Shown here piece by piece: positions 13,746-48,911 of a stretch of DNA of 64,000 nt. A program made the translations under genes and the position numbers. The stretch spans positions 21,636-85,635 of the IMG/VR virus record IMGVR_UViG_3300010367_000378. One strand, 5' to 3'. This DNA is from a virus. How positions within the stretch are numbered: the stretch's first letter is position 1; each line of letters begins with the position of its first letter. The notes below the pieces were generated by a model. The model had not been told where the DNA came from, searched no databases, and saw nothing but the letters and a program-made list of their open reading frames with translations.

Positions 13746-14230
13746 AGGCGGTGGCGATTCGTTCCGGGGTAGAAGATCCGGATGTCGACACCTCCAGCGA
13801 TCTCAAGATAGAGCCCGGTCCCGATCTCTTCCCCATCCGATCGGCAACCATCTCGTCGAACCGAGGCGGCTGGGTCCTGGGGCACGCCGAGATCTATTTC
13901 GAGCGGGTCGAGGTCCGGGCCCGGTGCCATTTCAACTCCGAGCTCCCGGCTCTCGACGAGCTCGTCGCGCGTGGCGGCCGCTCGGTCAAGAAGACCGGAG
14001 GCGGGGTCTTCGTCGCTCTCGTAAAAATCCTCCCCGGCTTCGTCTCGGTATCGATCGATGACCAGGAGCTGCCGATCATCTCGGTCACGGTCGAGATCAA
14101 ACCGGACGCGCCTGTCGAGGCGAACGTCGTCTTCCCAGATGCCCGCGAGCCTGGCGCATGGACTCCCAGCCTCTGCCGCCGCCTGCTCGAAGCCTGCGGG
14201 TGGGAGTTCTCCCCGGTGGGGGCTGTATGA
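13742..14230 (+). CDS. Hypothetical protein
   Basis: ATGA-coupled ORF. Confidence 0.6.
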   Translation: MKAVAIRSGVEDPDVDTSSDLKIEPGPDLFPIRSATISSNRGGWVLGHAEIYFERVEVRARCHFNSELPALDELVARGGRSVKKTGGGVFVALVKILPGFVSVSIDDQELPIISVTVEIKPDAPVEANVVFPDAREPGAWTPSLCRRLLEACGWEFSPVGAV

Positions 14231-15459
14231 ACTGGTCCGCCCTCTTCAGCAACCAGTTCTTCTCCGGCGGCATCGCCCTGGGCGCGATCGCCGCGCTCGT
14301 AGCGTTCGGCCGCCGCTACGTGGTGCTGCTCGCCGACGTCGTGCGCCGGCGCTTCGTGTCCGAGATCGAGGTCCGCGACGGCGACATGGTGGTGTGGCTC
14401 GGGCTCTGGCTCGCCCACACCCCCTATGGCATCGCCTGCAAGCGGCTCTCGACATATGTCCTCCACCAGGAGGGCGAGGGCGTGCCGCTCCTCTACTTCG
14501 AGCCGGGGATCGGCCCCCACGTCTTCCGGCACGAGGGGACCTTGCTGGTGATCGATCGCCGGCGAGATGAGCCCTCACCTGGTGCGTCGGTCTATCCGCG
14601 CGAGTGGTATGTCTTCCGGGCTTTCGCCCCCCGCGAGCGGGCCGCCGAGCTCCTGGACCAGGCGAAGGTCTTCTCCCGCGAGTTGCTCTCCCGGCGCCAC
14701 ACCGCCTTCCTCTCCGATGGCCGAGGCGGATGGGATCGGATCGGCGTCGGCGTTCCCCGCGAACTCTCCTCGGTAGTGCTCCCGGGCGAGACCATTGGGG
14801 AAATCGTGAAGCGCGTCCGTCTCTTCCAGGATCGGCGCGCCTGGTACGCCGAGCGCGGCATCCCCTGGCGGCTCGGGTTCGGCTTCTTCGGCCCGCCGCG
14901 CACCGGCAAGACCTCCCTCGTCCGCGCGATCGCCCACGACCTGAGCCTGCCGCTCTACGTCCTCGACCTCACCAGCAAGGAGTTCAGCGACAAGGACCTG
15001 ATCCTCACCCTTTCCAGGGTGCCGATCGGAGCCGTGCTCCTGATCGAGGACATCGACGAGCAGCTCGGCTCGAAGTCCTCCTTCGTCACCCTTTCGGGGA
15101 TGCTCAACGCGCTCGACGGACCGCTCGCCTCCGAGGGCCGGATCTTGTTCGTCACCTCGAACACCCCCGAGCGCTTGGATGCCGCGCTCCTGGGCGAGGG
15201 CCGGCTCGACGTCCACATCCACTTCGGGCTCGCCACCCGCGAGCAGGCCGGGCAGATGTTCCTCCGCTTCTTCCCCGGCCTCGAGAAGGAGGTTCAGGCC
15301 TTCGCCGCCGCCCTGCCGGAGGGAGTGATCCCTCCCGCAGCGATCCAGGAGCACCTGGCGGTCCGCTCGGACGATCCCGTCCGGGCGATCGCGGAGGCCT
15401 CGGCTCTCGCCGGCCGGACGTTCAAGGCGGTGGCCCGCGGGGAGGTGGCTGCTGCGTAG
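14227..15459 (+). CDS. Bcs1-like membrane-anchored AAA+ ATPase
   Basis: NQFFSGGIALG TM segment, WYAERGIPWRLGFGFFGPPRTGKT, LLIEDID, TLSGMLNALDG, TSNTPERLDAAL..GRLD. Confidence 0.85.
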   Translation: MNWSALFSNQFFSGGIALGAIAALVAFGRRYVVLLADVVRRRFVSEIEVRDGDMVVWLGLWLAHTPYGIACKRLSTYVLHQEGEGVPLLYFEPGIGPHVFRHEGTLLVIDRRRDEPSPGASVYPREWYVFRAFAPRERAAELLDQAKVFSRELLSRRHTAFLSDGRGGWDRIGVGVPRELSSVVLPGETIGEIVKRVRLFQDRRAWYAERGIPWRLGFGFFGPPRTGKTSLVRAIAHDLSLPLYVLDLTSKEFSDKDLILTLSRVPIGAVLLIEDIDEQLGSKSSFVTLSGMLNALDGPLASEGRILFVTSNTPERLDAALLGEGRLDVHIHFGLATREQAGQMFLRFFPGLEKEVQAFAAALPEGVIPPAAIQEHLAVRSDDPVRAIAEASALAGRTFKAVARGEVAAA

Positions 15460-15561: not shown

Positions 15562-15942
15562 ATGAACACTCCCTCGATTAGCAGCCGCATCCTCCTCGCC
15601 CTTCTCCTGCTTTTCCCCCTGGCCGCGCCCGCGGCGGCCGAGGAGGACGCCTACTTCTCGATGGCGTTCCCGGACCTGGTGACGGCGCCGGCGAACGCCC
15701 ACATCCACACCCACCTCTGCGTGACCGGGTTCGTCCAGAAGACCCGGAAGGAGAAGGACGGCGACATCCACGTCCAGCTTTGCCAGGGAAGCCTCTGCAT
15801 GGTGCTGGAGATCATGCCGGAGCTGCCGGTGGCCCGCCCCCGGAAGGGCCAGAAGATCCAGGCCTGCGGGGTTGTCCGGTATGACGGCTGGCATTCCTGG
15901 TGGGAACTCCACCCGCTGGTCCGGTGGGAGGTGGCCCGGTGA
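15562..15942 (+). CDS. Secreted small protein, probable OB-like beta fold
   Basis: Signal peptide (R-ILLALLLLFPL-AAPAAA), EKDGDIHVQL...EIMP...WELHP; 4 Cys in the mature part. Confidence 0.75.
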   Translation: MNTPSISSRILLALLLLFPLAAPAAAEEDAYFSMAFPDLVTAPANAHIHTHLCVTGFVQKTRKEKDGDIHVQLCQGSLCMVLEIMPELPVARPRKGQKIQACGVVRYDGWHSWWELHPLVRWEVAR

Positions 15943-22973: not shown

Positions 22974-23809
22974 CTCGTCGCTCCCCGGAACGCCCGACGT
23001 TCGCCTCGGAGCGCGCTCTCTGCGAGGCGTTCCTCGCCGGGGCTGCCGTCCCCGACGGCTGGACCGCCTATCCCGAGACCGACGGCTGGGACATCCTCCT
23101 GATCCGCGACCAGGTGCAGGTGGGCGTGCAGGCGAAGCTCCGGCCCTCGCTCGAGGTGCTGGCGCAGGCAGCTCGGCCGCTCCGACGCTGGCGTGATGCT
23201 CGTGGCCCCCATTACATCGCCGTCTTGGTTCCCTGGACCGAGGGCAATTTCTCTGACCTGGCCGAGATCCTGGGGCTCGTCGTGTTGCGGCCCTGGTTGC
23301 GGCAGCACCGAGGGCGGGATGGCGAGCAGGTCTTGACCTGGCACCCTGTCTCGCAGGCGATCGCAGGACTTCCGCCGCTTCACTTCGAGGCGCCAGCGTG
23401 GGTGCCGCCGGTGGTGCCCGATGTCCCCGCCGGCGTCCCGTCACCGGTCCAGCTCACCGAGTGGAAGATCCGTGCTCTGCGCTTCATGGCCCGCCTGGAA
23501 GTCCGAGGCTACGTCACGGTCCACGATCTGCGCGACTTCGGGATGACCTCCTCGCTCTGGTATCACCGCTGGCTCGTTCCGCAGGAGGGGCCTTCCCAGA
23601 ACCCGCCGCGGTGGGTGCGCAAGCCTGGGGTCGCGCTGGTAGATGCTCAGCACCCCGAGATCTTCGCGCAGTTCGTCCAGGCGACGAGGGAGGAGGGCAT
23701 CCCTGTATCAGAGCGGGAGCGCGTGGCGGCCGAGCGCCGGGAACGAAGCGATCAGCGCCTCCAATTGCTGCTCGATGGCCTGGCCTGGGCCGATGGCTCA
23801 GGAACCTAG
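22970..23809 (+). CDS. PD-(D/E)XK-like phage protein
   Basis: TTG start after GGAGGAGG; ERALCEAF...YPETDGWDILL...VGVQAKL. Confidence 0.6.
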   Translation: MTRRSPERPTFASERALCEAFLAGAAVPDGWTAYPETDGWDILLIRDQVQVGVQAKLRPSLEVLAQAARPLRRWRDARGPHYIAVLVPWTEGNFSDLAEILGLVVLRPWLRQHRGRDGEQVLTWHPVSQAIAGLPPLHFEAPAWVPPVVPDVPAGVPSPVQLTEWKIRALRFMARLEVRGYVTVHDLRDFGMTSSLWYHRWLVPQEGPSQNPPRWVRKPGVALVDAQHPEIFAQFVQATREEGIPVSERERVAAERRERSDQRLQLLLDGLAWADGSGT

Positions 23810-24450
23810 CCTGCCGTCCAGAGCGGCAGCAGGTAGGGCTTGCCGGCCTCGAACCGGGCCCGGACCTCCGCGAGCGACAGGCCGGTCGCCGCCTGGTGAT
23901 GCGGGAGGTCCTGCTTCTTCCCGGGCCAGAGGCCGCCCCATTCCAGCCCCGGGATCGTGCCCGAGATCTTGCCGGCGAGCCGGTAGGGGGGAAGATCCCC
24001 CGGCTGGTCGCCGTTGAGGTATCGGCCGCCGGCAAAGATGCCGAGGTCGACGGCGAGGCCGAAGTTGTGGTTCGACTGTCCCCCGCGGGCGTAGGTCACG
24101 ATGTCCCTGGGATCGCCGTTGCGACCCTGGCGGAACAGCTCGTCCTGTTCGGCGTAGTTCCGGGTGCCGCTGATGACCCGGGCATCGAGCCCCTCGACGT
24201 GGAGCTTGGCGAGTAGGTGTCGCATCAGCACCTGGGCGCCCGGCAGGAGGGTGCGCAGCAGTCCCTCGGTGCGCCCGTCGAGCTCGTTACCGGCGGCGGT
24301 CCGGATCGAGGCGAAGGCCTCGTCCCATGCCGCCTGGGCGCGGTCGGTCTTGGAGCCCCAGTCGCCGTCGAGCTTCCCGGTGTAGAACCCGGCGGCCGAG
24401 GCGAGGCGTTGGAAGTAGAGGACGTCGCCGGCGAAGAGGGGGGAGCTCAT
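23806..24450 (-). CDS. Endolysin: M15C-type (L-Ala-D-Glu) peptidase with N-terminal peptidoglycan-binding segment
   Basis: GFYTGKLDGDWGSKT; SGTRNYAEQDELF..GGQSNHNFGLAVD..WGG.W...DLPHHQ. Confidence 0.92.
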   Translation of the reverse strand: MSSPLFAGDVLYFQRLASAAGFYTGKLDGDWGSKTDRAQAAWDEAFASIRTAAGNELDGRTEGLLRTLLPGAQVLMRHLLAKLHVEGLDARVISGTRNYAEQDELFRQGRNGDPRDIVTYARGGQSNHNFGLAVDLGIFAGGRYLNGDQPGDLPPYRLAGKISGTIPGLEWGGLWPGKKQDLPHHQAATGLSLAEVRARFEAGKPYLLPLWTAG

Positions 24451-24905
24451 CGAGTGGCCTCCTTGGCGGTCAAGGGCTCCTCGCCGTGATCCACGTAGGA
24501 GATGGCGTGGGCATCGAGGAGAGCGGACATGCGGGTGAGGCGCCGGGTGAGCGCCGCGATCGTGATGTCGCGCTGCGCGACTTCGACCTGGTGCTCAGCG
24601 ACCGCCGCCCTCATCTCGGCCTGGTGGCGAGCCTGCCGCTCGCGGGCGAGCTCGTCGAAGGCCGCCTTCTCCCGGGCGTAAGCCTCGCGTCGCAGCTCGG
24701 CCGCTTCGTCGAACACCCGAACTTCCAAGGCCATCCCCTCCTGACGCTTTTCCCGGCGAGCCCGGAGCCATGCTGAAACCCATTTGACGAGCGCCCCGGA
24801 GCCAACGAGGCCGAGAAGGATCTGGGCGGCCTTGTCCGCCAGCCCCTCCATCTGGGCTGGAACGAACTGGACACGGTGGCCCGGAAGAGTCACAACTGCA
24901 CGCAT
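24447..24905 (-). CDS. Putative holin-like membrane protein (start may be 24851)
   Basis: One hydrophobic segment (AAQILLGLVGSGALVKWVSAW) plus coiled coil, directly upstream of the endolysin. Confidence 0.55.
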   Translation of the reverse strand: MRAVVTLPGHRVQFVPAQMEGLADKAAQILLGLVGSGALVKWVSAWLRARREKRQEGMALEVRVFDEAAELRREAYAREKAAFDELARERQARHQAEMRAAVAEHQVEVAQRDITIAALTRRLTRMSALLDAHAISYVDHGEEPLTAKEATR

Positions 24906-25014: not shown

Positions 25015-25473
25015 CTATTGAGGATCTTCTGGTTGCTTGCCGCCGAAGGAGAGGGTGGCGCCGAGAGCTGGATAGGGGTGCCGATCGATCCCGGAAGAGT
25101 CGTGCGAGGACACGAGGCCCAGGGCCACCGCGATCACGTGCGGGAACTGCGGGGTCGGCGAGTAGGCCCGCCAGGCGACCCCGACGCCGACCGTCTTGGA
25201 CCCGAGGACCGCGACCCAGGAGAGCCGCTTCCAGGAGAACAGGGAAACCCCGATCCCGACATCGCACCCCGGCCGTGAGGAGTCGGCGCGATGCGAGCCC
25301 ACCGTGCACCAGGTCGAGGCGATGAGCGGGGAAGATTCCGAGGGTGAGGGGGACGCCGCGGCGGGCTGGGGCTGCGGGGGCGGCTCGCCAGCCGCCGGCG
25401 AAGCGAGGGCCAGGAGGAGCGCACCGAGGGCGAGGCCGGCGAGGTTCCGGAGCTTCGAACGCTGGGGGTTCAT
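25015..25473 (-). CDS. Secreted beta-strand-rich protein
   Basis: Signal peptide ending PAAG, Pro/Ser linker, alternating amphipathic strands, 2 Cys. Confidence 0.7.
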   Translation of the reverse strand: MNPQRSKLRNLAGLALGALLLALASPAAGEPPPQPQPAAASPSPSESSPLIASTWCTVGSHRADSSRPGCDVGIGVSLFSWKRLSWVAVLGSKTVGVGVAWRAYSPTPQFPHVIAVALGLVSSHDSSGIDRHPYPALGATLSFGGKQPEDPQ

Positions 25474-25589: not shown

Positions 25590-26021
25590 TTACTGCGCGG
25601 GCGGAGCGAAGTATCCCTCGACGACGAGGGTCAGATCGATCGCGGTCGTGGAGCGGGCGGAGAGGTCGCGGAAGCACTCTCCGGCCGGCGCGCAGAGGCG
25701 GACGTCGGCGAAGCTGCTCGCCGTCCCCCCGCCGAAGGTCACGGCGCTGGCCGAGGACTGGGTGCCGTCGTACTCCCAGAGCTTCAGGGAACCGGCGCTG
25801 GTCGATGAGACGTGGACGGCCACGAGGACGGCGGTGGCCTCCTGCGGGATGTTGCAGGCGCCCCGGACCACCAGGTCCTGGTTGGAGTCGGCCGCCAGGC
25901 TGCCGCTGAAGAGCTGGCACGGCGCCAGCGCGGTGTGCAGCGAGGGGGCGGCGTTTGACTGCGCACCCGCGATGGAGGCGAGGGACAGAAGGCAGAGGGC
26001 CAGCAGGATGGTTTTCTTCAC
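25590..26021 (-). CDS. Secreted protein with an Acidobacteria-type PC..GAC.IP..A..V..V...GYF beta domain
   Basis: GTG 26021 with RBS AAAGGAG; MKKTILLALCLLSLASIAGA signal; LAPCQL..VRGACNIPQEATAVLVAV..LTLVVEGYF. Confidence 0.8.
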   Translation of the reverse strand: MKKTILLALCLLSLASIAGAQSNAAPSLHTALAPCQLFSGSLAADSNQDLVVRGACNIPQEATAVLVAVHVSSTSAGSLKLWEYDGTQSSASAVTFGGGTASSFADVRLCAPAGECFRDLSARSTTAIDLTLVVEGYFAPPAQ

Positions 26022-26056
26022 GGTCGGATTTCTCCTTTCTGGAACAGGCATGGATC

Positions 26057-26614
26057 TCACGGGGCGACGGCAGTCAGGTAGGTGGGGCCGGCCGACGTCG
26101 AAAGCTGGCAGTCGATGATGTCGCCGAGCAGGAACTCGCCGGCGACGGTGTTGTAGGTGTGCCAGGCGCCGGACGTGCCCTCGGAGCGCAGCTTCACATC
26201 GATCAACCCGTCGGCCGTGGAGATGAATCCGACGTTGCTCGGGATGCCTCCGGCGTTGACAATGTAGCCTTCCGTATAGCCTGGAGCGTTGCATTCATCC
26301 AGGCCGTAGGACCTCGTATAGCCACAGGTCTGGCTGTCGTCGATCGAGACGCTGGACGGCGCCTGGGCATCGGTCGGCAGGAGGATGTCGAGGACGCGCA
26401 GCGGGTAGTACTGCCCGTCCCGGACCCAGAAATCGCGGCCAGCGCCCGAGTCGTTCTTCAGGTGCAGGCGGACCCACCCGGTGCCGCTCGGGATGAAGCC
26501 GCAGTTGTCGGGTGGCGTGGCGGTGACGCCCGCAGTGGAGACCACGGTGGTGGCCATGGCGGGGAAGGACGACAGACACACGGCGAGCACCAGCAGCAGG
26601 ACTTTGCTTCTCAT
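26057..26614 (-). CDS. Secreted protein (moron-like, own promoter)
   Basis: RBS GGAGAGGAG; MRSKVLLLVLAVCLSSFPAMA signal; 4 Cys in the mature part. Confidence 0.8.
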   Translation of the reverse strand: MRSKVLLLVLAVCLSSFPAMATTVVSTAGVTATPPDNCGFIPSGTGWVRLHLKNDSGAGRDFWVRDGQYYPLRVLDILLPTDAQAPSSVSIDDSQTCGYTRSYGLDECNAPGYTEGYIVNAGGIPSNVGFISTADGLIDVKLRSEGTSGAWHTYNTVAGEFLLGDIIDCQLSTSAGPTYLTAVAP

Positions 26615-26718: not shown

Positions 26719-26748
26719 ACTATATACACCAGTATAGAAGCGCGTCAA
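26719..26748 (-). promoter_or_regulatory. Sigma70-type promoter with TATAC-N4-GTATA operator
   Basis: Minus strand TTGACG-N18-TATAGT; inverted repeat 26723-26736 in the spacer. Confidence 0.7.
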
Positions 26749-26772: not shown

Positions 26773-29499
26773 TCAGAGTGCCACGCTCTCCAGCCAGAAT
26801 CCCGAAAGATCTGCCGACCTCGTACTGCTGGAGGTCTGCAAAACGATTGCTCCAGGGAAGACAGTCGCGCTCGGCCCGACGGAGGTGATCCCGTCCCCGT
26901 TGACGTGCGTCCCATTGATCGTCCAACTCCAGTCTCCGGGAGAGATGCCGCGGTCGATCTCCAGGCGCTGAAAGGTGGTGGTGGCCGTCACGCCGGTGTC
27001 TGCGCGGTTCACCAGCGAGCCGCCGGACCACACCTCTACCCACCAGTGGGTGTTTCCGCGCGCCGCGGAGTCCAGCACGAAGAACACGCTGTTGCTACCG
27101 AAGTGGGAGGTGTCGGCGGTGTCCACCCCGACACCCACAATGAGCCGCACGCCGGAGACAGTGGAGACTGGCCGCACGAGCCAGCCGAACAGGTCTATGT
27201 CTAGGGCCTTGATCCCGGACTGCAACGCTACGCCGCCGCCGGTCACGTCCGGGGTGACGCTGGTGATCCGCATAATGGTGGGGCGGCCGGTCTCCGGGGC
27301 CTGCATCGCTGGCGCGCTGCTGCCCTGGGGGGTCCACCCCAGTCGCCCAAAGGCCCCGGTCGCGTCATTCGTGGAGGAGTAGTAGAAGTCGTCGTACAGG
27401 GTGAAGCGCTGCCAGGGACGTGCGACGCGAACGTCCGTGGCGGTCACCACCTCGCCGGCCGTCGTTTCCCTGTTCGTGCTCAGGATCGCCGCGCCCTTCT
27501 GGGTGGTGCTCGCGTCCGGCACGTCCAAGTCCACCTTCTGGTTGCCGGAATCGAGGGTGACAGTGACCTTGGAGCTGGCCGCGTTGATCTTGCGGAACCG
27601 AAGGTCGACTCCGCCCTTGTTGTCGAACAGGCCGACGCCGGCCGTGCCAACGTTGGATGCGGTGTTCGCCTCCCCGGAGACCGCCACCCAGGTTTGGTCT
27701 CCCCGGAGGAAGGTGCTGCTGCTGGCGCTCCCGCTTCCGAGGCGCGCGGTACCGAGGGTGCCGCTGGAGATGTTGCTCGCGTTGGTCGTGTCCGTCGTAG
27801 CGCTCGCGGCGAGCCCTGTGACCCGGGCGACCGGGACCGTCCCGGCCGCGAGGCTCCCGGTGATATCCACATTCCACAGAGTCGATCCGCCAGCAGTCTT
27901 GAAGGTCTGGAAACTACCCGTCGGCGACGTATCCGTTGCGCGTGACATGGTGATTCCGGTGTCACCGTTGACCGCTTGGTTCACGGTCGCGTCCGTCAGG
28001 GTGGGTGAGGTGCCGAACAGCGCTGCGCCGGAACCGCTTTCGTCCGAAAGGACCCCGCGTAGGTCCGCAGAGGTCGATGCGGCCAGGTGCGAAATCCCAG
28101 CGTTGGTGCTCCAAGTCCCGGAAGAGACGCGCAGCACCCCGGAGGAAGCAGAGGTGTCCAGGCCGGTACCGCCCTTGGCGGCTGTGACGGTGGGAAGCTG
28201 GCTCACCGTGATCGCGCACAGGGAGACGCTGGTCGTACCGCCGCAAGTTCCCACGACTCTGTCCGCCGTCTGCGAGGTCGCGGCGGCCACGGTGATTGTC
28301 CCCGAGGTGGTGACCGGGGAGCCAGTTGCGGCGAGCCAGGACGGCACGGCGAGCCCAACGCTCGTGACGGTCCCGCTCCCGGCCGGAGTCGCCCAGGTGT
28401 TGTCCCCGCGGAGGAACGTCGAGGAGTTGGCCGTACCGCTTCCCAAGCGGGCCGTCCCCACGGTTCCCGAGGAGATGTTCGACGCGTTGGTGGTATCGGT
28501 GGTGGCCGAGGCCGCCAGACCGGAAACCCTCGCCGCCGGCACGGTCCCGGCCGAGAGCGAGCCCGTGATGTCGATCCCCCACAGGGTTGATCCCCCGGCC
28601 GACTTGAACAACTCGAAGCTCCCGGTGGGACTCGTGTCCGTTGCTCGCGTGAGCAGCAACGCGGTGTCCCCGTTCGAGGCCTGATTCACCGAGACGTCGC
28701 TCATCGTCGGCGACGTCGCGAAGACGGCGGCACCGCCGCTCCCCGTCTCGTCCGAGAGCACCGCCCGAAGGGCGGCGCTCGTCGAACTCGCCAGGTCGGA
28801 GAGCCCGGCCCCTACGGACCAGGTCCCGCTGGAGACCTTGGGCACACCGGTGCTGGAGGAGGTGCTGATCCCCGTCCCCCCCTTCGCCGCGCTGACCGTG
28901 GGAAGCTGGCTATTCGTCATGGCACACAGCCCAATGGACGTCGCTCCGTTGCAGGTGCCGATGACCTGGTCCGCGGTCTGGCCGCTGGCGGCTGAGATCG
29001 CGATCGTGCCGGTGCTAGTGATCGGACTGCCCGTCGCGGTCAACCAGCTCGGCACCGTGACGTTGACGCTGGTGACCGTCCCCCCGGAGCCGGCTGGTAC
29101 CCCCCATGTCGCATCTTCCCGAAGAAAGCGGGTGGTCCCCGCCGAGGAGCCAGGATCGGGAACGACTCCCGAGGCGTGGGACCCGCCGGACGCGCCGAAC
29201 GTCGAGGCCGAGAGCGTGAAGCCGCTGGCGAGCGAGTGCGAGGTCCCCCCGCCGCAGAGAAGCGGCGGCGAGCACGTGATCGTCGTCGATCCCAGCGCGT
29301 AGGAGGAGAGGCTGAGGTCGGCCTTGAGCGCGGCCCAGGTGACGTTCTTGGACCCGGCGCAGTTGGCGCTCGCCTCGAAGTGCAGGGTGTCGGCGACGGT
29401 CCCCGAGGGCAGGCTGCAGATGCTCTGGGCGCCCGCGGCGGTGGTGAGAACGAGGAGGAGCACGGCGGCGAGGCCGAGCGGAAGCTTCTTGACGTTCAT
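26773..29499 (-). CDS. Tail-fibre-like protein with N-terminal signal peptide
   Basis: Position after hub genes; TFLRGDxTW, GTVTSV, EANTASNVG..DLRFR and DASTTQKG fibre motifs; C-terminal beta domain; MNVKKLPLGLAAVLLLVLTTAAGA leader; RBS GAAAGGA. Confidence 0.8.
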   Translation of the reverse strand: MNVKKLPLGLAAVLLLVLTTAAGAQSICSLPSGTVADTLHFEASANCAGSKNVTWAALKADLSLSSYALGSTTITCSPPLLCGGGTSHSLASGFTLSASTFGASGGSHASGVVPDPGSSAGTTRFLREDATWGVPAGSGGTVTSVNVTVPSWLTATGSPITSTGTIAISAASGQTADQVIGTCNGATSIGLCAMTNSQLPTVSAAKGGTGISTSSSTGVPKVSSGTWSVGAGLSDLASSTSAALRAVLSDETGSGGAAVFATSPTMSDVSVNQASNGDTALLLTRATDTSPTGSFELFKSAGGSTLWGIDITGSLSAGTVPAARVSGLAASATTDTTNASNISSGTVGTARLGSGTANSSTFLRGDNTWATPAGSGTVTSVGLAVPSWLAATGSPVTTSGTITVAAATSQTADRVVGTCGGTTSVSLCAITVSQLPTVTAAKGGTGLDTSASSGVLRVSSGTWSTNAGISHLAASTSADLRGVLSDESGSGAALFGTSPTLTDATVNQAVNGDTGITMSRATDTSPTGSFQTFKTAGGSTLWNVDITGSLAAGTVPVARVTGLAASATTDTTNASNISSGTLGTARLGSGSASSSTFLRGDQTWVAVSGEANTASNVGTAGVGLFDNKGGVDLRFRKINAASSKVTVTLDSGNQKVDLDVPDASTTQKGAAILSTNRETTAGEVVTATDVRVARPWQRFTLYDDFYYSSTNDATGAFGRLGWTPQGSSAPAMQAPETGRPTIMRITSVTPDVTGGGVALQSGIKALDIDLFGWLVRPVSTVSGVRLIVGVGVDTADTSHFGSNSVFFVLDSAARGNTHWWVEVWSGGSLVNRADTGVTATTTFQRLEIDRGISPGDWSWTINGTHVNGDGITSVGPSATVFPGAIVLQTSSSTRSADLSGFWLESVAL
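27700..29135 (-). repeat. Tandem duplication of a ~235-aa fibre module
   Basis: Two copies bounded by FLRxDxTW; period 705 bp (27713 vs 28418); high protein similarity with many synonymous differences. Confidence 0.9.
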
Positions 29500-29510
29500 G
29501 GTGTCCTTTC

Positions 29511-29852
29511 TCAATCGAGGATTCTCAGGCCCTTCCAGCCGGACCCGCCGTTGACCTCGGTCTTCCCGGTCGAATCGACGCGGAAGACCGGTTGCATGAC
29601 GCCGGCGCGGAGGACGCTCACGACGATTCGAGCGCTCTCCGATCCCGGGGTCGAGTCGGTGAGCTCCACCGTGATCTGCGCCCCCAGCAGGCCGCCAGGG
29701 GCGGTGGTCAAGTTGACCGTAGGCGTGACGCTGGAGACCGCCGCCCCGATCGTGTTCAGAAAGGCGTTCGGGTGGCCAGCCGCGAGCGCCGCGTTGGCCT
29801 GGGCAAACTGCCCAGCTAGGATCAGGTTCAGAATCGTGACGTCGAATGCCAC
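29511..29852 (-). CDS. Small virion-associated or fibre accessory protein
   Basis: GTG start next to the upstream stop; located between tail genes. Confidence 0.6.
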   Translation of the reverse strand: MAFDVTILNLILAGQFAQANAALAAGHPNAFLNTIGAAVSSVTPTVNLTTAPGGLLGAQITVELTDSTPGSESARIVVSVLRAGVMQPVFRVDSTGKTEVNGGSGWKGLRILD

Positions 29853-33397: not shown

Positions 33398-36300
33398 TTA
33401 GGACAATCCGGCCGGATACTTCGCCTCGATCGCTCGAACGAGAGCGGCGACCTGGCCGACCAGGCTGGTGATCGCCGCCCGGTCAGCAGCCCTTTCCTGG
33501 GCTTCCGAGAGCGCCACCGTCGACCGACGGTTCTTCTCCTCGTTGAGCTTCTTCTGTCGTTCCTGCTCGTGAGCTTGACGCTTCCGCTCGATTTCTTCAA
33601 GCGCCCGAAGCACGGCGAGGAGCTCGGGGCCGCACCCCTCTCCACGTTCCGAGACCACCGAGGAAGCGGCCGGCGACGGGGACTCGGACCGAGCGGCCGA
33701 AGCCGTGGAGGGCTGGGAGGGGGAAGCGATGCTTTCGCTGGTCGCCGCCACGATCCTGCTGCCGGAGGAGGTGGTCGAAGCCGTATTGTCCCGGATCGCC
33801 GCGAGCAGGGAGTTGGACTGCTGCAGGTGGTTGACGATCGGGTTGTCGGTCCCGCTGAGGAGCGGGTTGCTCCCGGTGAGCGCCTGGATGGCGTGGGTGA
33901 TCTCGTCCACCACCGCGTTCGAGCCCACGCCGGCGCCGAGGAAGCTCTGGGCGGACGCCTGATAGTCCCGGCCGGCCTGCTCGAGCTGCGACAGGGCATC
34001 CAGATCTCCGGCCCGGGCCCGCGCCAGCAGGTCGCGGAAGTGATCACGCGAGGTCGTGAACTGGTCGGCGCTCGACGTCCGCGGGTCGTTGTGCTGGAGC
34101 TCCTGCAGGAAGGAGGTGAGCCCCGAGGTTGCCTGCCGCCAGAAGTCGTTCAGCGCGTTGACCCGCGCGGCCTCGTAGCGGGCCATATCCTGGGCCGAGA
34201 CCCCGAGCCGGAGGAGCGCGGTGTGAGCGTCGCCGAGCTGCTTCAGCAGGTCGCGGAGCTGGAGCTGGAGGGGGTTCTTGCCGAGGTCCTCCCACCCCTT
34301 CAGGGTCTGGTCGACGAAATTCTCGACGGCCGCCTGGCTGGCGGAGGCCAGTTGGGCGAACTGGTCGGCGCTCGCCCCCAGGGTCACGAGGGCCGCATGG
34401 GCATCGTCGAGCTTGTCCCGGAGATCCTGGGCGTCCTTGACCACTTGGGGGACCGGCAGGAGCCCGGCGATCGTGTCGGAGACGAACTTGTTGACGGCGA
34501 CCTGGTAGGCCGCCTGGAGCTGCGACATCGCCACGGTGAGCTTGCCGCCGGTCCATGCGAGGGCCGCCTCCTGTTTCGACAGGTCGGCCATCTTGTCCTT
34601 GAGGTCCTGCGCCCCCTTGGCCGCGGGCCCGAGGGAGAGCTGGTTCCACTCTTTGACCTGCTGGCCGATCGTGTCGATGAGGGTCGCCGCCTGCGTCCAC
34701 GGGTCGTCATTGCTCTGCTGAGCCTGGGGCCGCTGCGGCGCCGGCCTCGTGAAGTCGGGCTGGTTGGCGGGGTCGTTGATCTCCTTCCGGAGGTTCTCCA
34801 GATCGGCCTTCTGGGCGTCCGTCAGGATGCCGAGCTGCTCGTAGGAGTCGAGGAGGAAATTGAACTGGAGCACCTGCAGCTCGAAGTTCAGCTTGTCCGC
34901 CTCGCGCCGGGCCTTGTCCGCGTCGTCGAACTTGCCCTCCTGCTCCAGGAGGTCGGCCGCCTGGCTGAGCAGGTTCTGGGTCGCCTGCGTCCCGAGCTGG
35001 CTGATGACGTCGTTGAGCCGGCCGGCGGTGATCGCCCCCTTGGCGGCCGAGTCGCGCAGGAAGGCGACGGTGTCCCCGAGTCCCTTGACCTGCTGACGGG
35101 TCTGCTCCATCGGCAGGTTGAGCGAGGAGATCGCGTCTTCGGCGAGCCCGTTCAAGGCACGCAGCTCGGCCTGGTTGAGCTTCCAGAAGGCGATGGCCCG
35201 CTGGCCGGTCTCATCGAGGAGCTTCTGGTTCGCCGCCCGCGCCTCATCGAAGGTCTTTTCGATGTCCCCGGCCTTCGTCTGCCACTGCGACTGCCCGTAG
35301 GTGCCGCCGTCCCCGGGGCCGAGGTACTGGCGGACCGGGTCGAGGATCGTCTTCTTCGTCTGGTCGATCAGCGCCTGCCGGGCCGCGCGGAGCTGATCCT
35401 CCGAGATCTTCAGCTCCTTGGCCTTCTTCGCCATCTCAGCCAGCTTGTCGCCGAGATCGAGAACCGCCTGCACACTCGACGGCAGCCCGAGGCGGGTGTC
35501 GGCCTTGAGCTGGTCGAGGAAGTCCTGCTTGTCGGTGCTCTTGCCCCCTCCGTGGCCGGCGTTCGGCTTCTTGCCCGCGTCGTGCATCGCCGCGTTGTAG
35601 GCATCGGTCCACATGCCGGCGTACTTGTCCCACATGTCGAGGGCGACGAGCTGCATCTTGATCGCCTGGAACTCCAGGTCGACCTTCATCCGGGCGAATT
35701 CGACCCGCTGGGCCTCGTACTTTTGGCTCCCCTGGAGGTACTGGTAGAGCTGGTTGAAGACCGCCATCGACACTTCCTGCTCGGAGAGCGCCTGCGGGAT
35801 CTTGTCGAGCTCGGCCGTGTAATCGGCGATCTGCTGGCGCAGCCGCGCGATCCGCGAGTCCCACTCAGCCTGGGCCGATGCGCGGTCGTCATCGGTCATG
35901 CCGGGGCGGAGCCGGGGGCCGGTGCCCATGCTGTTGATGTCGCTCTGGGTAGCCGCGATCTCGTCCTCGAGCTGCTTCCGGGCGGACTCCCCGGCCTTCT
36001 TCATCTGGTCGTTGAAGGCGACGAGCCCTGCGAGGAAATCGGCGGTGCTGGTGTCGATCCCGAGTGCCTGATTCTTCAGAGACTGGACGGTGTCGGAGAA
36101 CTTCCTGGTGATGCTTTCGACGGCCTGGTCGAGCGCGGCGGCGTCGCCAGCGAAGGTCTTTTTCGCCTGCTCCAGATCGGAGAAATACTGCTGGGCAGCC
36201 GCGGCGACCTGCCCCGAGATGCCGGGGAGATTCTGGGTCGCCAGGCGCTGCGCGAATTCAATCTGGGCCTTGAATTCGTCGAGGTCCTTGCCGGCGTAGT

Positions 36301-39300
36301 CCTTGATCGCCGCGACGACGAGGGGGTCGAGCCCGATGGAGGAGGAGTGCTTGATCGCCTCGATCAGGGCGTAGCTCATCGCCGCCTCGGCGTCCTTGCC
36401 GAAGTTGGTGACGATCCCGTCGACGTAGACCTTCCACTCGGTGTTCTTGCCCTGCCCGCGCCTCTTGACGGCGATCGAGGCGTCCAAGCTCTGGAAGATC
36501 CCGCCGTAGGCGATGAAGAAGCCCTTGATCTCGTCGGCGAGCTTCTTGCCGGCCGTGATCAGCCCGTCGATGTGCTTGCCGCCCTTGTCCATCTGGACGT
36601 CGAGGGCCGAGTTGAAGGAGATGACGCTCTCCTCCGTCTTCTGGAGATGGGCGGAGAGCTTGTTGACCCCGATCGCGAAGACGGCCAGGACCACCACCCA
36701 CGCGGCCACCATGCCCGCGGCGCCGGCGGCGCCGGTACCAGAGAAGAGCCCCGCAACGCCAGAGCCGCTCCCCGCAGCCCCGGTTCCCGCGCTCCCCCAA
36801 AGACCGCCGAGGCCGCTCCCCGTTCCGCCACCGCCCCAGATGTGCCCCGCCTGGCCACCGATCGAGGTCAACCCGCCGGTGACACCCTGGCCCTTCGCGA
36901 GGCCAGCGTTCCCGGCTGCGGCATTTGCCGCCGCGGTTTGAAGGGCCACCGCCGTCGCGAGCTCATGGGCAGCGATCCAGCGGACCAGCCACTGCTCGAT
37001 GTACTGAAGGGCGGTCTTCAGGGCGCTCTGCCAGAAGGACTCCCAGTCGCCTTTTCCGGTTACCAGGGCATCGTTGAGGGTCGAGAGGAAGTTGCTGGAG
37101 ATGGTGCTCCAGGCCTCCTTGAACGGCTCCTCGAGCCACTGCTGGATTTCGGCGTCCGCCCACGTCTTGCGGATCTCGTCGATGAGCTGGTGCTGCTTCG
37201 TGATCTGGGCGGTGAGCTCCTGCTCGGTGAGCTTGTTGTCCTTGCGGTTCAGCGCCGCGGTGACCTCCATCTTGATCTGGAGGTCTTCCTGGGCGTGGCC
37301 GAGGAGCCCGTACTTTTCCAGGATTCCGGCGAGCCCGGCCCCGTAAGCCTTCACGGCGTCGACGTTTGCCTGCCAGTCGGAGAACTGGGCGGAGAGCTGG
37401 TCGCGCTGCTTTTCGGCTTCAGCGTCGAGGCGCAAGGCCTGGGTGTGCCTCGCGAGGGTGTCGGTCTCCCTCTGGTAGTTCTCGTCGGTCAGCTTGATGG
37501 AGGCGGCGAGCGGCAGCCCGGCGATCGCGTTCTGCGCCCGCTGGTCCTTCTCGATCTTGAGAGCCAGGGCGTTCGCCTGCGAGGCGAAGGTCGTCCGGTT
37601 GATGGCGTCCTGGAGCTCCGCTTCGGCGGTCCGGAGGGCGATGCTCTGCTCGTTGGCCGTCTTGATGGAGACGATCCGTCGCTCGATCTCGATCCGATCT
37701 TCAGCGACCGCCACCGCGTGGGCCTTCCAGGCCTGTCCCTCCCGGGAGAGCAGCTCGACCCCAGCAACGATCTGGACCAGCCCGAGCTTGCGGGCCTCCT
37801 GCTCGCCCTTGAAGGCGGCGGCGGCGAGGGTCGAGTTGATCGTGGTGCCGGCGAGCGCGTCCTGGATCTTGGCCTCGCCGTCGACGACCGCCTGGTCGTC
37901 CGAGATCCGCTGCTGCCGGAGAGCGGCGGCCTGGCGCTCGACCACCTGCGCGTCGGAGAGGGCTCGGATGCTCGACCTGATCCCGAGCTCCTCCTCTTTC
38001 GTGAGGGTGGTCTTGTCCTTCTTCGCCTTAGCGGTCGCTTCAATGACCGCCTTGTTCTGCTGCTCCAGGATGACCGCCTGCCGGACCGCCTCGTCCCCGA
38101 TGAGCTGGGCGGCAGCCTGCGCCAGGGTCCCCCGGGCCTCCTCGTTCTTGACGTCGATCTGCTTCTTGATCCAGTCGTGGAAGTTCTCGACGCTCTTGGC
38201 GGCCTTTTCCGTGGTCTCGGTCCCGACGCGCTGGGAGGCCGTCTGGAGGTCGAGCTCGGCCTCCAGGGCGGAAACCGCCTTCGTCGAGGTGGTGATCCGG
38301 TCGTTGTGGAGCTGGAGACTCTTCGCCAGGTTGTCGACGTCGCTCTTCGCGGCCCGCAGGTTCGCCTGGATTTCTGGCCCATACGCCTTCTTGTAGGAGT
38401 CCGACCCGCTCGCGGCGAGGCCGTCCGCGGCGGTCTTGGCGATGTCGAGCCGGCGCTTGGCGGTGTCGAGCAGGCTCTCGAGCTGGCCGGTCTTGGACTT
38501 CTCGTTCTCGATCGCCGCCTTCGAGTTCTCCACCAGCGCCCGGGTCTCCCCCTCGAGGGCAGCGGTCGAGCGGTCGCGCGCGATCTTGGCCGCCTCGAGG
38601 GCGACCTTGTTGGTGCCGGCGGCCTCGGTGGCCTTGGCGTAGGCGAGGTTGATGGAGTTGAGCTGGCCGAGGAAGTTGTCGGCCCCGGAATCCCGCAGCA
38701 CGATGGCCGAGTTGTCGGCCGCGCCGGCGCTCACCTTGGCGGGCCCGGTGATGAGACCCACCCCGCTCGCCCCGAGCGCCGCCTTTTTCGAGACCGCGAG
38801 GACGTCGTACTGCTTGGTGAGCTTCGACAGGGCGATGGCGTTCTCGTTCGCCGCCGCCACTTCGTTGAGGAACGCCTGGTCCCCTTCCTTGCTGGTGGTG
38901 ATGAAGTGGTTGAGCACCCCGAGCAGCACCAGGACGGCCGCCGCCGCGGCGCCGAAGGGATTGGCCTCGATCGCCGCCGTCAGGGACTCGATGCTCGCGA
39001 GGAGCCCCGTGCTGGAGGCGGCCAGGTCGATCTCGGCAGCCTCGGCGACCGTCAGGGACCCCGCGTAGGCCATCATGCCGGCGGAGAGCCCGGCGGTCTG
39101 GGTGATCAGGGCGAACTCGGCCGCGTCGGCCGCCGTGGCGCTCTCGGCGAACGCGAACATCCCGGCGGTCAAGGTGGTCTCGGAGGCCGTGAGGGTGGCG
39201 TTGGCGCCGGCCGCCGAGAGGGCGAACGCTGCGTAGGCGCCGAGGACGATCGGCAGGTTGCCCAGCACCAGCCCAAGCGCGTTCGTGATGAGCATCACGA

Positions 39301-41461
39301 CCCGGAAGGCGCCGGCGACCCCGTTGGCCCACGCCTGCAGGTCGCCGCTTTGGACGGCTCCCCGGATCTCCTCGGCGAGTTGGACGAGCTGCGGCAGGAG
39401 CCCGGAGACGATCTGGAGGGATGCCTCCTCGACCGCCGCCTTCATCTGCTTGAAGACGAACGCCGGATCGGCCTTGACCAGGGCGTAGGCCTCGTCGGTC
39501 GCGTGGCCGATCGAAGCGTTGACCCGGTCCTGGATGCCAACGTACTCCTCGCCCTGACTGGCGGCGGTCGACAGGATGTCGCGCAGCGCCCGGATGTTCG
39601 GCACGACCTTGGCGAGCGCGTCGTTGTTGCCGTCGAACCGCTGGACCAGGTCGAGGAGGGCCGCCGCGAGCCCCTTCTGCTGGATCTCGGTCCGGAGCGA
39701 AGCCACGGAAAGGCCGACCGTCTTGAGCGCCTCGTTGGCGGACTTGGCCCCCTTGACCTCCAGGGCCGAGAGGATGCCGGAGAGGCCGGTCGCGGCCTCT
39801 TGCGCGCTGACGCCGACGCGGGTGAAGGCGGCGATCGACCCGCCGAGATCCCCGAACTTGACCCCCACCGCCGCGGCGACACCGGTTACGCGGGCGAACG
39901 CACCGACGAGGCTGTCGACGGTGGTGTTGCCTTCCCTGGCGGTCGCGATGTAGACGTCGAGGGCCTGCTTGGCGGTGAGGGTGCCGGCCCCGTAGGCGGT
40001 CATCGCGGCCACGGCGCCGCGGGCGACGGTCGTCTGGTCACCGAGCCCGATCGCGGCCCCCTTGGCGCTCGCAGAGAGGGCATCGAGGGCAGCCTGGCCT
40101 CGCAGGCCCGAGGACTCGATGGCGAACGCCGCCTTGGCGTTCTCTGCGGCGCTCTGGCCGGTCTCCAGGGAGATCCCGTGGATCGCCTCCCGGACGCTCT
40201 GGACTTCCTGCGCGGAGGCGCCGACTAGCGTGCGGAGGCGGACCAGGGCGCTCTCGAACTCGATCGCCGCGGCGACGGCCTCCTTGAAGCCCTGGATCAG
40301 CTCGATGATCCCGCCGTAGACCGCCATGTACTTGAGGGCGGTCCCGATCTCACCGATCGCCCGGGAGAGCATTCCGGCGCCGGAGGAGGCCTTGCCGAGG
40401 GTGGCCTCCTGTTCGGCCCGGACCTGCGCCAGGACGGCGCGCTGGTCTTCGAGGGCGATGACCTCCTCGCGGATGGCCGCGGCGCCCTGCTGGTCGATCA
40501 CCACCAGCCGGCCGCGCTCGTTCATCTCGGCGACGCCGGCGGCGAGGAGCTGCGCCTGGATCTCCAACTGCTGGTTGAGGGTGGCCTCGGCGGCGGCCCC
40601 CTGCCGGGCGGCGGCCACCCGGTCGCCGGTCTGGTTGGTGCTGGTGCGGAGCTCGATCAGGACCTGCTGGAGCTTCCTTTCGGCCGCGGTCGCCTGCTCA
40701 GCGGCGGCGGTCTCGGCGGCCCGGTCGGCGCGCACCTTCTCCAGGGCGGTCGTGAGTTGTTGCCAAGCGCGGAACTCGTTGAGCACCGCCCCCGCGAGTC
40801 CGTCCTCGGCGGTGATCCCCGCCTTGACCAGGGCCTCCATTTCGAGGAGCCCCTGCTTGCGAGTTGCGATCGCGGCTGTACCCTCCCGCTCGGCCTGGAT
40901 GTCGAGCTGGAGCTCGGCGCTCAACTGCCGCATGGTCTGGATGTAGCTGAGGGCGCTTTCGCTCCCGAGGAGCGTCTCCTTCCCAAGGAGGCCGGCCCCC
41001 TCGGCCGCCGTCCTGAGCGAGGCGGCGAGCCCCTCGCTCGCCGACATCAGGGTCTCGGTGGATGTAGCCGCCGAGACCGCGCCGCTCGCGACCGACTCCA
41101 GGCCGGTCCCCATGGAACCGAGGGACCCTGCGGACTTCGCGATCGAGGAGTCGGCCGCCGCGACCGAGGAGGCGAGGGTGTCTGTGGACGCCGAGGCGCT
41201 CGCCACCGAGACCTGGGCGCGGCTGACGGAAGAAGCGAGGCTGCTGGAGGCGGAAGCGACCGAGGAAACCGAGCCGGCGACACTGCGGGTGGAGATGCCG
41301 AGGCGCTCGGCGGTCGCTACTACGCTGTCGAGCCTCGCCTGCAGGCGGTCAGCCTGCTCGCCGGTCTTGACGAGGTCGGACTGGAGGGCCTCGACTCCAG
41401 GCTTTGCGGCGCTGGAGTCGAGCCCTACCTTGAGATCGTACTGGGTACCGCCCTCGCTCAA
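33398..41461 (-). CDS. Tape measure protein, 2687 aa (TP901-like core)
   Basis: Length, Ala-rich helical content, FESALVRLRTLVGAS..LETGQSA..AFAIESSG core, position after the chaperones. Confidence 0.95.
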   Translation of the reverse strand: MSEGGTQYDLKVGLDSSAAKPGVEALQSDLVKTGEQADRLQARLDSVVATAERLGISTRSVAGSVSSVASASSSLASSVSRAQVSVASASASTDTLASSVAAADSSIAKSAGSLGSMGTGLESVASGAVSAATSTETLMSASEGLAASLRTAAEGAGLLGKETLLGSESALSYIQTMRQLSAELQLDIQAEREGTAAIATRKQGLLEMEALVKAGITAEDGLAGAVLNEFRAWQQLTTALEKVRADRAAETAAAEQATAAERKLQQVLIELRTSTNQTGDRVAAARQGAAAEATLNQQLEIQAQLLAAGVAEMNERGRLVVIDQQGAAAIREEVIALEDQRAVLAQVRAEQEATLGKASSGAGMLSRAIGEIGTALKYMAVYGGIIELIQGFKEAVAAAIEFESALVRLRTLVGASAQEVQSVREAIHGISLETGQSAAENAKAAFAIESSGLRGQAALDALSASAKGAAIGLGDQTTVARGAVAAMTAYGAGTLTAKQALDVYIATAREGNTTVDSLVGAFARVTGVAAAVGVKFGDLGGSIAAFTRVGVSAQEAATGLSGILSALEVKGAKSANEALKTVGLSVASLRTEIQQKGLAAALLDLVQRFDGNNDALAKVVPNIRALRDILSTAASQGEEYVGIQDRVNASIGHATDEAYALVKADPAFVFKQMKAAVEEASLQIVSGLLPQLVQLAEEIRGAVQSGDLQAWANGVAGAFRVVMLITNALGLVLGNLPIVLGAYAAFALSAAGANATLTASETTLTAGMFAFAESATAADAAEFALITQTAGLSAGMMAYAGSLTVAEAAEIDLAASSTGLLASIESLTAAIEANPFGAAAAAVLVLLGVLNHFITTSKEGDQAFLNEVAAANENAIALSKLTKQYDVLAVSKKAALGASGVGLITGPAKVSAGAADNSAIVLRDSGADNFLGQLNSINLAYAKATEAAGTNKVALEAAKIARDRSTAALEGETRALVENSKAAIENEKSKTGQLESLLDTAKRRLDIAKTAADGLAASGSDSYKKAYGPEIQANLRAAKSDVDNLAKSLQLHNDRITTSTKAVSALEAELDLQTASQRVGTETTEKAAKSVENFHDWIKKQIDVKNEEARGTLAQAAAQLIGDEAVRQAVILEQQNKAVIEATAKAKKDKTTLTKEEELGIRSSIRALSDAQVVERQAAALRQQRISDDQAVVDGEAKIQDALAGTTINSTLAAAAFKGEQEARKLGLVQIVAGVELLSREGQAWKAHAVAVAEDRIEIERRIVSIKTANEQSIALRTAEAELQDAINRTTFASQANALALKIEKDQRAQNAIAGLPLAASIKLTDENYQRETDTLARHTQALRLDAEAEKQRDQLSAQFSDWQANVDAVKAYGAGLAGILEKYGLLGHAQEDLQIKMEVTAALNRKDNKLTEQELTAQITKQHQLIDEIRKTWADAEIQQWLEEPFKEAWSTISSNFLSTLNDALVTGKGDWESFWQSALKTALQYIEQWLVRWIAAHELATAVALQTAAANAAAGNAGLAKGQGVTGGLTSIGGQAGHIWGGGGTGSGLGGLWGSAGTGAAGSGSGVAGLFSGTGAAGAAGMVAAWVVVLAVFAIGVNKLSAHLQKTEESVISFNSALDVQMDKGGKHIDGLITAGKKLADEIKGFFIAYGGIFQSLDASIAVKRRGQGKNTEWKVYVDGIVTNFGKDAEAAMSYALIEAIKHSSSIGLDPLVVAAIKDYAGKDLDEFKAQIEFAQRLATQNLPGISGQVAAAAQQYFSDLEQAKKTFAGDAAALDQAVESITRKFSDTVQSLKNQALGIDTSTADFLAGLVAFNDQMKKAGESARKQLEDEIAATQSDINSMGTGPRLRPGMTDDDRASAQAEWDSRIARLRQQIADYTAELDKIPQALSEQEVSMAVFNQLYQYLQGSQKYEAQRVEFARMKVDLEFQAIKMQLVALDMWDKYAGMWTDAYNAAMHDAGKKPNAGHGGGKSTDKQDFLDQLKADTRLGLPSSVQAVLDLGDKLAEMAKKAKELKISEDQLRAARQALIDQTKKTILDPVRQYLGPGDGGTYGQSQWQTKAGDIEKTFDEARAANQKLLDETGQRAIAFWKLNQAELRALNGLAEDAISSLNLPMEQTRQQVKGLGDTVAFLRDSAAKGAITAGRLNDVISQLGTQATQNLLSQAADLLEQEGKFDDADKARREADKLNFELQVLQFNFLLDSYEQLGILTDAQKADLENLRKEINDPANQPDFTRPAPQRPQAQQSNDDPWTQAATLIDTIGQQVKEWNQLSLGPAAKGAQDLKDKMADLSKQEAALAWTGGKLTVAMSQLQAAYQVAVNKFVSDTIAGLLPVPQVVKDAQDLRDKLDDAHAALVTLGASADQFAQLASASQAAVENFVDQTLKGWEDLGKNPLQLQLRDLLKQLGDAHTALLRLGVSAQDMARYEAARVNALNDFWRQATSGLTSFLQELQHNDPRTSSADQFTTSRDHFRDLLARARAGDLDALSQLEQAGRDYQASAQSFLGAGVGSNAVVDEITHAIQALTGSNPLLSGTDNPIVNHLQQSNSLLAAIRDNTASTTSSGSRIVAATSESIASPSQPSTASAARSESPSPAASSVVSERGEGCGPELLAVLRALEEIERKRQAHEQERQKKLNEEKNRRSTVALSEAQERAADRAAITSLVGQVAALVRAIEAKYPAGLS

Positions 41462-46093: not shown

Positions 46094-46747
46094 TTAGCTG
46101 GTCGGCGCCGTGAACTGCTCGTAGAAGACCGTGCAGCGGATCGCGCCGGCGCCGGGGGTTCCGGTCGTCGTGATCACCAGCGGCGCCGCGGCGGCCTGGG
46201 TGGGACCCGCAGCCGTGGTGGTGACGTTCCCCGCCATGTGGGCGAGCCCCACCACGGTGGTGCCCGCCGTCATCGTCGAGTTGGAAGCGGAGAAGCGAGC
46301 CGCGGTCGTGCCGTCCCCCACCTGCCAGGCGGTCGCCGTCGTGATCGTGGTGGTGACGCGGCAGACCACCGCCTTGATCAGGGAGTTGGCCGGCAGGAGG
46401 TTCCCGGAGCTCGTGGTGGTGGTGCCGGAGGTCGAGAGGGTGATCAGCTCCGTCGAGTAGCTGCGCGTGTCGGCCGCCCCGTTGGTAGCCGCGAGCGTGC
46501 TGGTCAGGGCGGAAACCCAGGCGCCGGAATGCCAGACCCAGATCGCCCCCGTGTCGGTGGCCTCCCGGATCTCTCCCTCGTGGCGGCCCGGGGTGGACGA
46601 GAAGGCCGACGTCGCGATCGGCTCCCTGAAGGTGGTGTTGCCGAAGCAGAGCGGCGCGAGGCCGCAGACCTGGGCCGCGGCCGGCGCGGCGGTCAGGATC
46701 AGGAAGAAGGCGAGCACCAGGCCCGCAGCTCGAACGTGGGTCTTCAT
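46094..46747 (-). CDS. Signal-peptide-bearing head decoration/fibre-like protein
   Basis: MKTHVRAAGLVLAFFLILTAAPAAA leader; Thr-rich beta domain (LLPANSLIKAV..TTTIT..QVGDG); 4 Cys; inside the head module. Confidence 0.7.
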   Translation of the reverse strand: MKTHVRAAGLVLAFFLILTAAPAAAQVCGLAPLCFGNTTFREPIATSAFSSTPGRHEGEIREATDTGAIWVWHSGAWVSALTSTLAATNGAADTRSYSTELITLSTSGTTTTSSGNLLPANSLIKAVVCRVTTTITTATAWQVGDGTTAARFSASNSTMTAGTTVVGLAHMAGNVTTTAAGPTQAAAAPLVITTTGTPGAGAIRCTVFYEQFTAPTS

Positions 46748-48864: not shown

Positions 48865-48911
48865 CTGTCGATTCCTCCCCGGGCGCTCGCCGGCGACCGG
48901 TCGTTTGGGGT

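Follow-up and report, generated by a model that had tools for sequence, protein, structure and literature searches.

The assembly of tailed phages is taught as a wholly cytoplasmic process. In the filamentous phages (Ff), the virion receptor-binding protein pIII carries a Sec leader and acquires its disulfides in the periplasm, while the fibre-like proteins PblA and PblB of Streptococcus mitis phage SM1 end up as adhesins on bacterial surfaces and the Llp protein of phage T5 masks the receptor. Among Porphyromonas phages, leaders of the signal-peptidase-I type that expose a Gln at position +1 have been described on capsid, spanin and unknown genes, whose products were taken to modify the host surface (Matrishin et al. 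2023, PMC10367356); these leaders obey the Q-rule described for Bacteroidetes (PMC5837995). Bdellovibrio bacteriovorus produces mosaic adhesive trimer (MAT) fibres, secreted trimers with variable tips that are displayed on the cell surface as adhesins (Caulton et al. 2024, PMC10769870) and that possess their own conserved beta-rich N-terminal domain of ~130 amino acids directly after the signal peptide (PMC10769870). Here we describe a tail-fibre gene whose product combines a predicted cleavable Sec leader with paired Cys residues. The gene is a minus-strand open reading frame (ORF) of 908 amino acids at positions 26773–29499 of a 64,000-nucleotide (nt) stretch (hereafter the window; 68% G+C), which covers positions 21,636 to 85,635 of the IMG/VR virus record IMGVR_UViG_3300010367_000378 (87.9 kb, ~81% complete), from an uncultured soil phage.

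The fibre protein resembles Ff pIII in being a leader-bearing and, as predicted, disulfide-stabilised receptor-binding protein, but Ff virions assemble at the envelope and are extruded through it, whereas the window belongs to a tailed phage with terminase, portal and a capsid built in the cytoplasm. PblA/PblB and Llp are precedents for a role away from the virion, although PblA and PblB lack a leader and are set free by lysis, and Llp, a small lipoprotein, bears no relation to fibres. The leaders of the Porphyromonas phages are likewise of the signal-peptidase-I type with Gln at +1 and represent the nearest published report, but they occur on other genes, and tail fibres are unmentioned there (PMC10367356). 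The MAT fibres share with the fibre protein a signal peptide, a long phage-fibre-like shaft and a variable adhesive tip; they differ in being chromosomally encoded cell-surface proteins with an N-domain of their own, whereas the protein described here is phage-encoded within a tail operon and does not have the MAT N-domain.

The ATG of the fibre gene (29499) lies 4 nt downstream of a ribosome-binding site (RBS) that can be read directly from the minus strand (GAAAGGA, 29504–29510, including AAGGA at 29504–29508), and the TGA of the upstream gene (29511–29513) is placed 11 nt before it. The original prediction, made from the letters alone, had proposed this RBS-supported start and a product running from MNVKK through a hydrophobic stretch to AGA/Q, and both are borne out. 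Residues 1–24 (29428–29499, minus strand) form a predicted signal peptide composed of an n-region (MNVKK, with charges at K4 and K5), an uncharged hydrophobic h-region of 15 residues and a c-region (AGA) with Ala at −3 and −1, followed by a predicted cut before Gln25 (AGA/QS), and equivalent leaders are present in homologues. These features were scored with a rule-based test, and leader calls throughout this work derive from a simple rule applied to sequence and denote predicted leaders only. The leader contains neither a lipobox Cys at the cut nor a twin arginine, and an NCBIfam search of the fibre protein returned no C-terminal sorting domain; we therefore rejected the possibility that the leader or C-terminus marks a lipoprotein or a substrate of twin-arginine translocation (Tat) or type IX secretion. 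In its sequence, the leader is a typical Sec/signal-peptidase-I substrate in which every expected feature is present.

Comparison across the family strongly supports an export role for the leader. Around 265 homologous proteins were collected, 74–83 of them leader-bearing. The leaders are mutually unrelated in sequence, yet the small residues at −3 and −1 are kept, and Gln occupies position +1 in 35 of 83 leaders (42%), compared with 2.8% in the background; cleavage sites were picked without regard to Gln. Because such a large share of the homologues carries a leader, with Gln frequent at +1, the leader as judged by this comparison is not a chance feature. The Cys content follows the same division. 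The fibre protein itself has eight Cys (positions 28, 47, 76, 82, 183, 192, 419 and 428) arranged in four close pairs (28/47, 76/82, 183/192 and 419/428), in agreement with the four nearby pairs noted in the original prediction. Median Cys density is fourfold higher in leader-bearing than in leaderless homologues (1.13% vs 0.27%, p = 3e-18), and even Cys counts predominate over odd ones among the former (53:19) but not among the latter (69:75). The Cys-pair form of the shaft module described below was found in 10 proteins, all of them leader-bearing (10/10, two with miscalled starts), and in no leaderless protein, whereas the Cys-free form was found both with and without leaders. The first Cys pair is present in the leader-bearing homologue P0003 and absent as a pair from P0271. 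Cys enrichment, even-count bias and Gln at +1 characterise, as statistical signatures, proteins whose folding takes place in an oxidising compartment, and the precursor is very probably exported and cleaved.

Beyond the predicted cut, the protein is modular (all coordinates on the minus strand). The mature N-terminal domain (residues 25–128; 29116–29427), which holds Cys28–Cys47 and Cys76–Cys82, is a candidate docking domain that also occurs in P0003 and P0271, both of them leader-bearing phage fibres. It is followed by two copies of a shaft module (residues 129–365 with Cys183–Cys192, 28405–29115; residues 366–602 with Cys419–Cys428, 27694–28404), a neck of short fibre repeats (residues 603–694; 27418–27693) and a C-terminal concanavalin-A-like lectin head (residues 695–908; 26776–27417). 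The part of the original interpretation that concerned a cleavable Sec leader with disulfide pairs is strongly supported by the comparative evidence. It was probably mistaken in seeing no obvious N-domain for virion attachment, as the mature N-terminus belongs to a domain common to the phage fibres P0003 and P0271. The shaft is a 237-amino-acid duplication at the protein level, with copies 73% identical to each other and copy 2 62–72% identical to the modules of P0003–P0007; Tandem Repeats Finder detected no DNA-level repeat in the gene despite this duplication, and the monomer model of the shaft module had a predicted local distance difference test (pLDDT) score of 49. Repeats of the neck are widespread, recurring in hundreds of fibre-like proteins, and its query positions 1–70 match many proteins several times each. 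All of the fibre motifs quoted in the original prediction (GTVTSV and DASTTQKG among them) were found in this gene in fibre position, and hundreds of homologues, some of these annotated as tail fibres, contain them as well.

The head was modelled with AlphaFold2 (AF2) as a concanavalin-A-like sandwich (pLDDT 84.7), with template modelling (TM) scores of about 0.6–0.75 to its Foldseek matches in the PDB and BFVD, the best of which were GH16 glucanases, legume and L-type lectins and the ends of uncultured-phage fibre-like proteins; by sequence, it is related to leaderless fibres. Lectins and glucanases cannot be told apart by this fold match alone. A 16-sequence alignment of the head revealed no conserved Glu-x-Asp-x-x-Glu catalytic strand of GH16, on which ground GH16-type glucanase activity was rejected, and because no conserved catalytic motif is present we read the modelled C-terminal domain as a glycan-binding head. 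No family for the fibre protein was found in Pfam, PHROGs or NCBIfam, and a sequence search of the PDB gave no match; in the cultured-phage collection there was no match to the whole protein, with residues 340–700 giving weak partial matches only, and the searches brought up no relative with virion proteomics.

The relationship to conventional tail fibres is seen most directly in the leaderless members of the family. The annotated tail fibre of Burkholderia phage BcepNazgul matches the fibre protein (E = 5.8e-44, part of the query covered), and an annotated tail fibre of Synechococcus phage S-SRM01 is also among the homologues. Leaderless family fibres (P0146, P0143, P0129 and P0267; distantly BcepNazgul and S-SRM01) are alike in repeat motifs, neck and concanavalin-A-like head, in the type of N-domain (in sister proteins) and in their position after tail-tip genes, but they begin with Met-Ala right at the docking domain, without a leader and without Cys pairs. 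Leaderless versions of sister fibres begin exactly at the predicted cleavage point of the leader-bearing ones. Residues 80–216 of leader-bearing P0005 align with residues 2–125 of leaderless P0146 (E = 2e-17), in which both P0005 Cys are replaced, and similar relationships were recovered between P0004 and P0146 (E = 2e-11) and between P0006 and leaderless P0267 (E = 3e-9). P0146 shares the last 345 residues of the fibre protein (E = 9e-19) and is encoded 8 nt after a 764-amino-acid tip protein, within a tail module homologous to those of contigs L001 and L054.

The genomic slot is also shared. The fibre gene belongs to the late tail operon, where it comes after the genes for the tape measure and the tip, and leader-bearing homologues occupy the same post-tail slot in L001 (with a tape measure gene before it and a lysozyme gene after it), L053 and L054, the last with the order gpT, tape measure, three tip genes and then the leader-bearing fibre; leader-bearing fibres were also found in the phage-like contig L004 and the myovirus contig L005. 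Since the slot recurs, leaderless fibres start at the cleavage point, the tail module is shared and the gene is coupled to its operon, we would say that the leader is an addition to an otherwise ordinary fibre.

We propose, tentatively and with the balance of probability still somewhat against us, that the exported protein is a side tail fibre that joins the virion when the inner membrane is permeabilised or at lysis. In this scheme SecYEG would export the precursor, which would be cut before Gln25; four disulfides would form and the protein would trimerise in the periplasm; the fibre would meet the cytoplasm-built tail only upon opening of the inner membrane by the holin, or upon lysis, and would dock on that tail through the mature N-domain; and the lectin head would then bind a surface glycan of the next host. 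The fuller picture of a two-compartment particle, with head and tail made in the cytoplasm and a Sec-exported fibre that is trimmed, disulfide-bonded and trimerised in the periplasm before being added at the holin breach, is held a shade more cautiously still. If true, periplasmic maturation of a receptor-binding fibre would imply a second assembly compartment for tailed phages and tie fibre attachment to the lysis programme, and it would account for the presence of structural disulfides in fibres. The leader-plus-cysteine fibres in siphovirus, myovirus and other contigs would then represent a widespread and unrecognised assembly route in uncultured soil phages, with consequences for host-range prediction, for recombinant fibre production (periplasmic expression would be needed) and for annotation, in which leader-bearing fibres tend to be dismissed as morons.

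Several other explanations of the same gene were considered. That the leader is an annotation artefact, with the true start downstream of the hydrophobic stretch, is scarcely credible. The original prediction had named this as one of two circumstances that could overturn it, and no point in its support was found: after ATG1, the in-frame start codons are GTG13, which lies within the hydrophobic core and lacks an RBS, and then codon 149. A start at codon 149 would remove a conserved domain, as residues 25–148 are kept in P0003 and P0271, and the third-position G+C content (GC3) of the leader codons (0.91) compares with 0.86 in the remainder of the gene. Alternatively, the hydrophobic N-terminus may be genuine but not used for export, acting as a retained assembly or membrane-tethering helix, or Sec may be bypassed late in infection, with folding and assembly taking place in the cytoplasm. 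This explanation fits the textbook assembly route, and cleavage in this protein is a rule-based prediction, but we consider it improbable given that the h-region is just 15 residues long, that small residues stand at −3 and −1, and that otherwise unrelated leaders keep both the small-x-small pattern and the excess of Gln at +1. The Cys density, the even-count bias and the restriction of Cys-pair modules to leader-bearing proteins are likewise unexpected for a cytoplasmic protein, and a retained cytoplasmic helix would not explain these Cys and Gln patterns across the homologues.

A further explanation accepts export but places the protein off the virion, as a fibre-like lectin derived from a tail fibre and released late into the periplasm or at the surface, where it might prevent the loss of progeny by masking or occupying the receptor glycan on the lysing cell and its remains, block competing phages or act as an adhesin like the MAT fibres. 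We regard this as conceivable, if rather doubtful. It accounts equally for the export evidence (Cys enrichment, Cys-pair modules with leaders and Gln at +1), and it gains from a series of observations that weigh against a virion fibre. Above all, export parts the fibre from the assembling tail, a topology problem that an off-particle role avoids. We know of no tailed phage that exports a virion part, literature searches found no published precedent for exported tail fibres in tailed phages, and a siphovirus can recognise its host by the central tip alone. The N-domain of the fibre protein itself aligns with leaderless N-termini in register but weakly (hhalign E = 0.006, probability 6%), the match being clear only for the sister fibres. 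The shaft module is found in large secreted proteins of acidobacterial chromosomes, among metabolic genes and outside prophages, and also matched Bdellovibrio loci, where the surface-displayed MAT fibres offer a precedent for secreted adhesins. The fibre gene heads a run of four secreted-protein genes adjoining the lysis cassette, in which the three genes downstream of the fibre resemble morons, encode secreted proteins and have a promoter of their own. Comparable runs are present in L001, L004 and L005. In L001 (6878–14705), moreover, the tip protein is encoded by two genes (328 and 476 amino acids), whereas L055 and L054 have a single gene of 764–803 amino acids, and the two halves are parted by a 5.4-kb block containing the leader-bearing fibre, the small secreted protein sp1 (see below), two leader-bearing Cys-rich mini-proteins and a reverse-strand gene, as would be expected of an inserted cassette. 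Against an off-particle role stand the absence of a promoter of its own and the coupling of the fibre gene to tail genes, because of which a role in lysogens is also unlikely. The phage-type N-domain has been kept, with no similarity to the N-domains of the Bdellovibrio-locus or acidobacterial proteins; leaderless relatives with the same N- or C-modules lie inside tail modules; and only one fibre-family gene was found in the ~81% of the genome that the record represents. Of the two fates offered in the original prediction, synteny and the modules shared with leaderless fibres favour joining the particle after rupture of the inner membrane, while the chromosomal secreted look-alikes and the topology problem favour an adhesin or mask, and, given export, we slightly favour a virion fibre. 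Should the protein act off the particle instead, it would represent a new class of fibre-derived secreted phage factor.

The bacterial look-alikes also bear on the host, which is probably a soil diderm and perhaps a member of the Acidobacteriota, where the nearest relatives of the shaft module are found. The capsid gene gave little support to this assignment, the capsid protein matching 1 of 301 acidobacterial genomes at 35% identity, and the acidobacterial prophage with that match contained no leader-bearing fibre. The secreted fibre-like proteins of the acidobacterial loci L020 (9392–13761) and L038 (8927–11989) are 1000–1200 amino acids long and share an N-terminal motif after a leader ending before Gln; in L020 the fibre-like protein is followed by a Laminin_G_3 protein.

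The structural genes of the window form a siphovirus-like block on the minus strand, comprising terminase (54458–56707), portal (52763–54442), major capsid protein (47794–49038) and tape measure protein (33398–41461), with a head morphogenesis protein, a head–tail adaptor and a minor tail protein in the same block. At the usual 0.15 nm per residue, the 2687-amino-acid tape measure corresponds to a tail of roughly 400 nm. Two proteins of 856 and ~300 amino acids, encoded on the same strand between the tape measure and the gene at 29511–29852, match phage families of unknown function and were read as tail-tip proteins from their position. The gene at 29511–29852 (minus strand; probable GTG start at 29852, RBS GGAGA) encodes a leaderless protein of 113 amino acids and is tightly coupled to the fibre gene; the protein had no family matches and is possibly a cytoplasmic stub or adaptor. 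Within the 8 kb scanned for promoters, the single sigma-70-like site (TTGACG, 18 nt, TATAGT; 26719–26748, minus strand; 1 found vs 0.3 expected) falls in the gap that separates the fibre gene from sp1, immediately downstream of the former; the region upstream of the fibre gene yielded none.

The sp1 gene (26057–26614, minus strand) encodes a secreted protein of 185 amino acids with four invariant Cys, a member of a small family of nine clusters. It directly follows the fibre gene in this phage and in L001 and L006, and family members also turned up close to a portal gene (L056) and in bacterial surroundings (L057), which led us to reject sp1 as a dedicated periplasmic fibre chaperone; its occurrence without the fibre and its separate promoter make it moron-like. 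Two small signal-peptide genes (25590–26051 and 25015–25473, minus strand) separate sp1 from the lysis genes, and the former shares 55% identity with a homologue that L001 encodes on the opposite strand, beyond the lysozyme gene. The protein encoded at 24447–24905 (minus strand), with one transmembrane segment and a long coiled coil, lies directly upstream of a VanY/M15 endolysin (23806–24450, minus strand) and looks like an inner-membrane spanin or holin; no convincing lipoprotein partner for it was found. Secreted-protein clusters adjoining the lysis cassette recur in L004 and L005, where a second large leader-bearing protein after the leader-bearing fibre (L004, 11656–13266; L005, 12320–13849) is followed by holin-like membrane proteins.

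By the same simple rule, six ORFs in the window are leader-bearing. Clear leaders away from the fibre locus include that of an ORF in the head module (46094–46747, minus strand), which has a predicted cut before Gln and 4 Cys, and that of an ORF at 15562–15942 (plus strand). The latter directly follows a gene for a Bcs1-like AAA protein (14158–15459, plus strand) whose scores for BCS1_N, AAA and the BCS1 lid exceeded the Pfam cut-offs; in mitochondria, Bcs1 carries a protein through a membrane in folded form.

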